Below are positions 24,971-27,900 of a stretch of 64,000 nt of DNA, piece by piece (position 1 is the stretch's first letter; each line of letters begins with the position of its first letter). The position numbers and the translations under genes are program-made. This DNA is from Polyangiales bacterium. GTDB lineage: Bacteria; Myxococcota_A; Polyangia; Polyangiales; Ga0077539. The notes beneath the pieces were generated by a model. The model saw only the letters and a list, made by a program, of their open reading frames with translations. It was not told the DNA's origin and did no database searches. The stretch covers positions 512,001 through 576,000 of the forward strand of contig JBGARZ010000002.1 of the NCBI GenBank assembly GCA_044229975.1, given 5' to 3'.

Positions 24971-27900
24971 TCAGATCGCATGGATGTCGGCGCCGGTGAG
25001 CCCGAGGGGCACGAGCAGGGGCTTGAGGTCGTCGGCGGTGATGCTGGCGGCGGACTTGTACACGCCGACCATGGATGGGAACGCCTTGAGCAGCTCCGAT
25101 TCGAAGGCGCCGAGGCTGTTCGCGGTGATGGTGAGCGTCCTGCTGGTGACGACCCTCTCCAGGTGCTCACGCATCGTCTTCGCGTGGATCTCCAGCAACC
25201 GCACCAAGTGCATGCCGAGGAGCGTCGGCATGTCCGCCAGCAAGCGGGTCTTGAGCTGGGTCGCGACCGTCTTGAAGTCCACGTCGATGCTCGTCGCGTT
25301 CTCGACCACCTCCGCCTGTCGCAAGGCGCCGAGGTAGGCGTTGAATCGGGCGCCGAAGTTCGTGGCATCTGCGGCCTCCACCACGCCTAGCAGCCCGTCG
25401 ATCGATGCCACGCGGCCCGGTCGGCGCTTGCCGACGATGACGCTGGCGACATCCCAGTCGCCGCGCGGGGAGGCGATCACCGGCGCCGCCTCCGGGCCCT
25501 CCAGAGCCTTGAGGGCCGTGATCCTTGCCGCGAGGTCGAGCTCAGCCGCCCCTTTGTACGTCGAGAGTTTGGTGTGAGCACCGGTCACGCACGGCAGCCC
25601 GCGCGAACCAGCATGCACGCTGTTGAGCCACGCACCCGCCGCGGGGAGGTCACCGTCCACCGGCAGCGTGTCCCACGAGGCGCTCGCGGGCGTGCCCTTT
25701 ATGCAGTTCACCGTGAAGTGCACGCCGTGTTCGGTGGTGAGGTTGTTGACCACCTGTTCGTGCTTGGTGCGATTGGACGCCAGCGCCGTCGCCTGGGCCT
25801 CCAGCTGGCGCACATAGAACATCGCCGCGCACTCGTCGCGCCGGGTACCGGCCCGCGCGGCCAGCCCCTGCGCCGCTCCCAGGTATGGCGACGATACGTT
25901 GGCGACGTCGGTCGCCCAGGCGCGGGCGGCGTCGGCGACGGCGCGGGCGGCGTTGTAGTGGTCAAGCCACTTCTCCGCGCCCGCCGCCTCGTAGTCGCCG
26001 ATGGCGGTGTCGAGGTTTCCAAACGCGGGCGGGCGGGCCTCGCCGGTGATGACACTGTCAGCGTCCCAGGTGCCCCGCACGACGGACGTAGGCGCCGCCA
26101 ACGCTGCCTTCACCGTGTTGATCTGCGTGTTCTTGCCGGAGGCGTTCGACCACGGAACTGCGTGGTAGTTGTCGAGCTGCCCCAGCTTGGTCACGGCGAC
26201 ACCCTGGGTCTTGAACGAGCCCAGCACGGCCCCCCACTCGACCCGCGTGGGAAGCTCCGGCGCGGTTGACACCACGAAGCGCGGGGAAAAGATCATCGCG
26301 CAGCGTCGGAAGGTCCACTCCTGGGCCGAGCCCCCACCGTGGGCGCCGGTCAGGTACCACTTGTGGCTCAGCTTGCGACCGATGCCTGCCTTGCCGACCC
26401 GCGCCATCGCCTGCACGAGCAGCTTCATGTCGCTGTCGACCATGGACCAGGCGTTGATCCGAAGCTGAACGGTCAGCATCAGGACGCCATCGTTGGCCGT
26501 CGTCCCAGCGGGGTCTTCCTTCTCGGGAAGGGTCTTCATCGCGAAGTCGTCCGCGCCGATCGCATAGAGGAACAGGTTGGTCTTCCCGTGGTTGGCGGTG
26601 AGCGGCGCGACCGCCGGCAGCGCGTAGTCGTTGGTCGCCGTGAGCGGCCAGAACGCGAAGGTGCGGTCGGGGTTGGCGTGCGGGGGGACCTTGTACGCGT
26701 CGCGGGTGTTGAGCTTGACGTGGACCGGGAAGGCGACCGCCCGCCGCACCCACTCCGCCGAGGGCCAGAAGTAGCGGTTATGCAGCGAGGAGTTGCCGTT
26801 CATCATCGGCGAGTTGGCCTCCTGGAACTCCACCGAGCGGCCGTCGAGCTCGTACGGATCACCCGGCAGGTGCTGCTTGAAGCTGAGCTGCCCGTACGAG
26901 GCGCCGTCCCAGCGCTCGTTGTACTCGTCGGGCAGTCCGCTCTCGTGCCCGTGCTCGTGCGCCGAGGCGAAGCCGTTGGTGCCGCCCGCGTCGGCCTTCC
27001 CCTTCCCCGACGTCATCCCGAGTCCGTGGGGGTTGCGCCAATCGCGGGCGTCGTCGCCGTTCTTGACCGTGATCTTGAAGTGGGCCTGCTCGACCGGGAC
27101 CACCTGCATGAAGTCCACGACGGTCACCTGGAGCCGCTTCGTGGTCTCCTGCGGGACGAGCTTCGCGCGCTTGATGTCCGGGCTGATGCCGTTCCAGCGG
27201 TCGAGGATGTTGCGCTGGTAGTCGCGGGCGAAGTCCTCGGCGCCGCCGGGGGGCGCGTCGGCGAAGTCGAAGGACGTGCGGAGGAAGTGCAGGTTGACCG
27301 CGGCTTCCGTGGGATTGCCACTCACCGTCTCGACGCCGCAGCTCCGCAACAGGATCATGTCGAAGCGCCCGATCAGCCCGCTCTTGTCCGTCGCGTCGGT
27401 GAACTTGCCGCCGCGCGGCGTGTAGTGCTGCCCGTAGTACGGCTGGATCACCATGCTCCCGTGGTCGCTCATCGCGGGGACGCCCGCGCCGCGGAAGAAG
27501 CGGCCCGGGGCGGGCTTGTGGTCCGTCGTCTTCGAGATGTGCGTCGTCGGACGGAGGGGGTCGGGCTCCCACATCTCCGTCGTCCCGAGGCGGTCCGTCG
27601 TGTCGACCCAGCGCACCGCGGCGCGCGCCCCCACGACGTCGTAGTCGGGGTCTTCCGGATCGCTCAGGACGGTACGCTGATCGAAGACGTCGAAGAGGCT
27701 GCCGTGCGCCGCGATGGCGCGCGTCCACAGCGGCTGGCGGATGACGTAGTTCTCATTGGCCTCGACGGCGCCCGAGGCGGGCAGCTTGGTGTACCAGGCC
27801 TTCTTGTCGGCGGTGTCGGGGTCGAACACGCCCTCGCGCGTGCAGCCGTCGGTCTCGTCGAAGGTGTTGGCGAAGATCGCGAGCCGGTCGTCCTGCGACC

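Follow-up and report, generated by a model that had tools for sequence, protein, structure and literature searches.

The locus described here raises the question of what two repeated helical modules are doing in the C-terminal part of a very long, putatively proteolytic protein. It lies in a 64,000-nucleotide (nt) stretch of a Polyangiales bacterium (assembly GCA_044229975.1, contig JBGARZ010000002.1, positions 512,001 to 576,000), called the window below, where a preliminary description had noticed, in an open reading frame (ORF) that we name P0001, two copies of a bipartite module recalling the membrane-localisation domains (MLD) of large toxins. The reading that we favour, with a probability of roughly 45%, is that these modules are paired insertions with the fold of the four-helix-bundle membrane-localisation domain (4HBM), likely nested one in the other, and that they form the membrane-tethering arm of a likely type VI cargo protease toxin directed against rival bacteria. 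The features of P0001 on which this reading draws are the following, with units numbered by module (aa, amino acids; HMM, hidden Markov model; iE, independent E-value; H and E, helices and strands in the numbering of the structural model; pLDDT, its confidence score).

24971..29440, minus strand: host ORF P0001, 1489 aa, a metzincin-like putative type VI cargo effector
26927..26959, minus strand: HExxHxxGxxD zinc motif (aa 828-838), with a near-invariant Met at about aa 880
26087..26254, minus strand: unit 1a (aa 1063-1118), forming helices 1-3 of a putative outer bundle in module 1; HMM positions 5-56 of 79, iE 2e-6; predicted helices H16-28, H30-44 and H50-61
25820..26086, minus strand: unit 1b (aa 1119-1207), complete inner four-helix bundle with a predicted 4HBM-like fold; model pLDDT 93.9
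25730..25819, minus strand: putative fourth helix of outer unit 1a (aa 1208-1237), continuing inner helix 4; predicted helix H137-188
25673..25729, minus strand: beta-strand segment (aa 1238-1256) conserved in the small C-terminal domain, separating insertion sites 1 and 2; predicted E193-198 and E203-206
25478..25648, minus strand: unit 2a (aa 1265-1321), forming helices 1-3 of a putative outer bundle in module 2; HMM positions 2-56, iE 1e-13
25211..25477, minus strand: unit 2b (aa 1322-1410), inner unit of module 2; HMM positions 1-78, iE 2e-15
25151..25210, minus strand: putative fourth helix of outer unit 2a (aa 1411-1430), from the helix-4 profile; predicted helix H337-382

The repeated units of P0001 and their insertion sites

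The duplication is evident at the protein level, as the preliminary description had written. Module 1 (aa 1063-1237, window 26254-25730, minus strand) and module 2 (aa 1265-1430, window 25648-25151, minus strand) align with a local BLOSUM62 score of 94, a value reached by none of 5000 shuffles (30.5 ± 5.5), and they are the top pair in an all-against-all scan of P0001 with 110-aa windows; pairwise BLASTP gives 34/134 identities (E 8e-9). The pattern quoted earlier for both copies, SV.xG..R....I/LD..L..Y, holds in general, although its final Tyr is found only in module 1 (Val in module 2). The less biased codon usage of the modules, previously judged by eye, was also borne out, the effect being small: G+C at third codon positions is 290/328 (0.884) in the modules and 1033/1102 (0.937) in the rest of P0001 (Fisher p = 0.0026). 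Plain self-BLASTP of P0001 does not report the repeat and the DNA-level match between the two modules is weak and gappy, which argues that the duplication is old.

Protein searches and a genome scan (43 loci) yielded 69 distinct C-terminal tails of homologues (at least 31 homologues among the matches listed), after dropping records without the zinc motif, tails under 280 aa and tails identical to another. An iterated HMM of 79 positions, seeded on five single-unit homologues, finds no unit in 32 of these tails, one in 7, two in 3, three in 1 and four in 26, with a best iE of 0.38 on the reversed tails; in the homologue P0017 a third unit probably lies beneath the threshold. P0001 itself has four units, two of them complete and two reaching only HMM position 56 of 79. 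The modules do have two parts each, as the word "bipartite" implied, but these parts are related units; a module made of two unrelated halves was rejected, given that a single HMM detects both and how the reversed controls score.

The units sit at two insertion sites flanking the conserved strand of the small C-terminal domain, and their number varies at both. A strand matching the aa 1238-1256 segment is present by eye in unit-free homologues, and aa 1236-1264 have 53% identity to homologues. Site 2 is, as read by eye, the insertion site of the single-unit homologues, and site 1 is occupied in a clade of 26 rows of the protease tree (support 98/99); a recent DNA duplication of the modules was rejected on this shared insert and the weak DNA match. 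The mean identity of P0001 to 21 homologues is 32–38% in the modules, compared with 51–58% outside them from aa 171 onwards (41% for aa 1-170), so that the earlier term "variable inserts" is apt both for unit number (0–4) and for sequence. The same slot holds GYF_2/GYF domains instead of bundles in one homologue (L042, aa 1186-1310 of 1930-6216; GYF_2 E 1e-11); we take GYF_2 to be related to proline-binding domains. A similar insert by eye, without Pfam match, is seen in L043:1-2835. One subclade (P0019-P0023, L005) has a poly-proline run of ~20 aa inserted in loop 1 of unit 1b.

Units are carried by 9/9 genomes of the genus and by 0/22 other genomes of the family searched (congeners were in the query alignment). 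Searches of other protein families, word-based and thus weak as negatives, returned the P0001 family alone. Of two weak genome matches to the unit, the one inspected was a chance coiled coil.

The domain bearing these inserts belongs to a zinc-protease-like, putatively metzincin-like protein, to judge from its sequence. HExxH is found in all 69 tails (a set selected on the motif), and the +10 residue is Asp in 68 of them and Glu in the other one; the motif's Gly is present in 29/69, P0001 among them, and a Met ~50 aa downstream is almost invariant (M248 of alignment A5). The best match of the family profile in the PDB, at E 8.7e-4, is 1c7k, a zinc endoprotease of the snapalysin type from Streptomyces. 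The match covers only ~55 residues about the motif; this metzincin, with Asp as third ligand, has HExxH..D and the downstream conserved Met in common with P0001. Weak matches to immune inhibitor A (M6) were also obtained, all metzincin matches being under the family cut-offs. In two homologues (L007:10001-14486 and P0024) the gene appears interrupted, with a motif-bearing frame of 714 aa in the former and a break of frame near the zinc motif in the latter; these interruptions may be sequencing errors.

Predicted fold, nesting and resemblance to 4HBMs

The predicted structure of unit 1b, a bundle within the 80-90 aa range of the 4HBM, superposes on solved 4HBMs. Its five best structural matches are all 4HBMs, aligned end to end and almost gap-free; 85–88 residues align with those of MARTX RID (5xn7) and of the clostridial glucosylating toxins (5uqk, 8qen, 2vk9, 2vkh, 9bon) at a root-mean-square deviation of 2.0–2.4 Å, and weaker matches are found to MARTX RRSP (5w6l) and to the C1 domain of the Pasteurella toxin (2ebf). 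In the region of unit 2b, model residues 268-362 match four-helix bundles.

The two incomplete units of P0001 end after helix 3, and each inner unit is followed in the model by a single long helix (H137-188 and H337-382). With a helix-4 profile built on the seven single-unit homologues, a second window resembling helix 4 shows up 20 aa past the inner helix 4 in 22 of the 56 full units, and 23 or 27 aa past it in 17 more. In P0001 this second window scores z 4.6 in module 2 (rank 1 of 644) and z 2.9 in module 1 (rank 3 of 644), the single-unit controls giving z 1.9–2.4, and the three-unit homologue P0036 has three such windows in succession. One continuous helix is predicted to bear both the inner and the outer helix 4, and the inner bundle would lie within loop 3 of the outer bundle, at the tip of the latter that faces the membrane. 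In such an arrangement the outer bundle would act as a spacer or stalk, leaving lipid contact to the inner tip only.

The 4HBM is defined, in the accessible parts of its descriptions (PMC3417404, PMC4848617, PMC8100071), by an Arg in loop 3 together with a loop 1 that is basic and hydrophobic. In unit 2b, loop 1 is both basic and hydrophobic (Val/Ile/Val, Lys and three Arg; net +3), and that of unit 1b is so in part (Val, Ile and one Arg, net -2); basic and hydrophobic residues occur together in loop 1 of 4/7 single units and 24/56 full units. Across the seven single-unit homologues, which come from several phyla, positions with Trp, Asp, Tyr, Arg and Leu are conserved, with the loop-1 Arg in 5/7. 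An Arg at the loop-3 column is seen in 5/7 single-unit homologues and 14/56 full units, and in many congeners loop 1 of unit 1b is gone but the loop-3 Arg is retained.

Two results weigh against assigning the units of P0001 to this domain. The loop-3 Arg (R68 of TcsL) is replaced in unit 1b by Tyr1186, as placed from VIA ranges, and in 2b by Phe-Lys, and the 4HBM profile PF11647 had no match in Pfam scans of P0001, its sub-regions and its homologues, nor in 20 unit sequences at E <= 10. Whole-genome searches with PF11647 found nothing in the genome itself (0/1), in the phylum (0/151) or in one further genome (0/1), negatives that are uncontrolled, the Vibrio plasmid used as control having given no match either. 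Among five genomes one matched weakly (E 0.14), in frames differing in length from that of the homologue, and matches in 3/400 genomes were discarded as below cut-off, unrelated by eye and scoring zero with the unit HMM. Profile searches of PDB sequences returned no 4HBM chain, only chance coiled-coil matches or the protease motif; matches in the ESM Atlas, at 0.80 or lower, were at chance level and a further search gave nothing usable, and tblastn against plasmids gave no match. The resemblance proposed in the preliminary description therefore stands for the predicted fold of unit 1b but not at the sequence level. The 4HBM-like fold of unit 1b is supported as a prediction, and we do not file the units as 4HBM members. 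Their descent from a 4HBM seems likely to us, and we are slightly inclined to believe that at least one of them binds membranes.

The gene cassette and the target of the protein

The genes around P0001 bear directly on its delivery and its target:

23675..24952, minus strand: PQQ_2-type beta-propeller, 425 aa (PF13360, E 1e-9), starting 18 nt past the P0001 stop, without signal peptide
29474..30184, minus strand: LysM + PG_binding_1 gene, directly upstream of P0001
23069..23665, plus strand: DUF4123 type VI effector chaperone (PF13503, E 1e-34; Tla1 E 4e-9, below cut-off)
22027..23046, plus strand: conserved cassette ORF without Pfam or NCBIfam match

Both paralogues of the LysM gene in the genome lie 2–4 kb from vgrG genes, and a domain related to the conserved cassette ORF is in frame with a LysM-PG paralogue at another locus. 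The genome has one TssC and 16 vgrG matches, and no marker of contractile injection systems (Pvc16_N, sheath) was matched in it; three of the vgrG genes stand in tandem (G000 C32:1097395-1103544). Homologues of P0001 are found behind clpV-vgrG-DUF4123 (L012), vgrG-PAAR (L021) and vgrG-DUF4280 (L008), and one (L010:5589-10793) is fused to VgrG OB, OmpA and carboxypeptidase-regulatory domains, its VgrG match covering the C-terminal part only. Counting by Pfam on 63 of 86 picked neighbour ORFs plus five from L012, a vgrG, PAAR or DUF4123 marker accompanies 16/43 loci (8 of them in congeners) and the window itself. That P0001 is type VI cargo is, in our judgement, quite probable. Unit-free homologues often have N-terminal OmpA and PG_binding_1 domains (L013, L020, L021, L026, L029, L039; P0030-P0032), which suggests that the N-terminus is a second variable slot.

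The propeller gene is a fixed partner, found downstream in 39/43 loci, the other four stopping at or near a contig end. Between eight congeners identity is 95% for idh, 62% for the protease core, 45% for the modules and 61% for the propeller. The pairwise identities of modules and propeller correlate with a Spearman coefficient of 0.97 (0.88–0.97 across the effector-partner comparisons), over 28 non-independent pairs for which linkage alone can yield such values; with idh identities the correlation is only 0.14–0.17 over the same number of non-independent pairs. By a crude hydropathy rule 17/35 partners have signal-peptide-like starts, including 4/4 at loci with one or two units and 0/7 in the four-unit clade. 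We infer that the propeller is the immunity protein. In several loci (L016, L018, L019, L029, L038-L040 and others) the propeller gene has by eye a signal- or lipoprotein-like start, a Lys-rich linker and a second Met near the signal-less start, and such dual starts could give periplasmic and cytoplasmic forms.

In the mechanism that we propose, P0001 would be loaded on a VgrG/PAAR spike, helped by DUF4123, and delivered into a neighbouring bacterium. There the tips of the inner bundles, on their stalks, would attach to anionic phospholipid and keep the protease at the target cell's membrane; unit 2b, with its basic and hydrophobic loop 1, is the best candidate for lipid contact. Because the partner has no signal peptide in the genus, this would more likely take place on the cytoplasmic side of the inner membrane. 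The protease might then cut a membrane-proximal substrate, while the propeller would block it in self and kin.

The preliminary description had instead hinted at a fungal or protist target. The effector-immunity-like cassette, with its fixed propeller, the identities of the latter tracking those of the modules and the signal-like starts of about half of the partners, points to bacterial targets while leaving room for eukaryotic ones, and the OmpA or PG-binding domains of many unit-free homologues point the same way; on the whole, we lean towards a bacterial rather than only a eukaryotic target. If the modules were true 4HBM anchors for the eukaryotic plasma membrane, P0001 would be an anti-protist, anti-fungal or trans-kingdom type VI effector. 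All 4HBMs characterised in the accessible parts of PMC3417404 and PMC8100071 act at eukaryotic membranes, the basic-hydrophobic loop 1 of unit 2b would suit such an anchor, and the signal-less partners of the four-unit clade and the GYF_2 alternative in the slot, with its presumed relation to proline-binding domains, go in the same direction. A purely anti-eukaryotic effector, however, would need no partner gene that is kept and co-diverges with it, and this, together with the OmpA and PG-binding domains and the missing loop-3 Arg, makes such a role seem improbable.

It is also conceivable, if rather unlikely, that the units, whether descended from a four-helix bundle or only similar to one, no longer bind lipid and act as spacers, as arms that contact other proteins (giving specificity for substrate, immunity or carrier, for example) or as a freely varying decoration. 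The end-to-end, nearly gap-free match to 4HBMs alone among the five best hits argues against this, as do the residues kept in the single-unit homologues of several phyla, the loop-1 and loop-3 Arg included. Finally, P0001 could be no type VI toxin but a metalloprotease, secreted or displayed on the surface, that has the propeller as its partner and serves housekeeping or predation, its modules anchoring it to its own membrane. The gene is single-copy in 9/9 genomes of the genus, mostly flanked by idh and purB, and 27/43 loci have no type VI markers nearby; we nevertheless hold this role to be very improbable, given an N-terminus without signal peptide (by eye), homologues that immediately follow vgrG or PAAR or are joined in one protein with a VgrG OB domain, and a divergence well beyond that of housekeeping genes.

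Elsewhere among the loci, that of a congener (L005:6880-20180) shows another cassette order, with DUF4123 and the conserved cassette ORF upstream and the LysM gene downstream on the opposite strand. The window also holds a 277-aa ORF without Pfam or NCBIfam match (32127-32960, minus strand; three paralogues in the genome, 44–47% identity) and a bacterial MATCAP-family protein (33265-34914, minus strand; PF08014, E 1e-123; ~88% identity in congeners).

Significance and comparison with known systems

In the literature searched, which left most subscription papers outside its scope, no full-text paper joined membrane localisation domain, four helices and type VI effector, and none was found for PF11647, for tandem MLDs in environmental bacteria or for an antibacterial bundle of this kind; among the matches listed, no title or abstract start described the P0001 family. 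A broader generalisation, tentative and rather doubtful for now, would be that, in environmental Myxococcota, Planctomycetota, Acidobacteriota and Betaproteobacteria, type VI effectors used between bacteria also carry the 4HBM anchor as a mobile targeting module, one that grows by Russian-doll insertion into its own loop 3, is adjustable in arm length and is swapped with other targeting domains in one slot. If so, the anchor of three toxin families and BteA would extend to an undescribed multi-phylum protease family in which current Pfam misses it, and bacterial competition would become a candidate source of the MARTX and clostridial toxin anchor. A question of origin, open to test, is then whether anionic lipids of bacteria are bound by 4HBM bundles and whether these bundles have a part in bacterial conflict. 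A bundle nested in its own membrane-binding loop would be an unusual way of building an arm, and the natural series of one enzyme with 0, 1, 2, 3 or 4 units or a GYF_2 substitute makes anchor number and reach directly testable.

Like the 4HBM/MLD (PF11647), the predicted bundle of P0001 has ~88 aa, a short helix 1 and three long helices, with a hydrophobic and basic loop 1 in unit 2b, and the units are accessory to an enzyme domain. They differ from it in their sequence (8–17% identity, no Pfam match), in the replaced loop-3 Arg and in context: the toxins have one unit, whereas P0001 has four, apparently nested, in loops of a C-terminal domain, and they are attached to a zinc protease whose type VI-type cassette includes a probable immunity gene. 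The lipid-raft-targeting domain of BteA (6rgn), proposed as a divergent 4HBM in the accessible part of PMC8100071, matches the unit less well than canonical 4HBMs do and, unlike the units of P0001, is N-terminal, single, type III delivered and aimed at a eukaryotic target. As regards the cassette, myxobacterial type VI systems are presented as kin-discrimination weapons with scattered effector-immunity loci (review, PMC10433427, accessible part). P0001 matches no family described in Pfam or NCBIfam for type VI cargo cassettes and, unlike the kin-discrimination loci, its locus is fixed across the genus and lies on no visible mobile element. It shares with both, however, the DUF4123 adaptor gene, the vgrG and PAAR links, the fixed downstream partner and the polymorphic C-terminal half of the effector.
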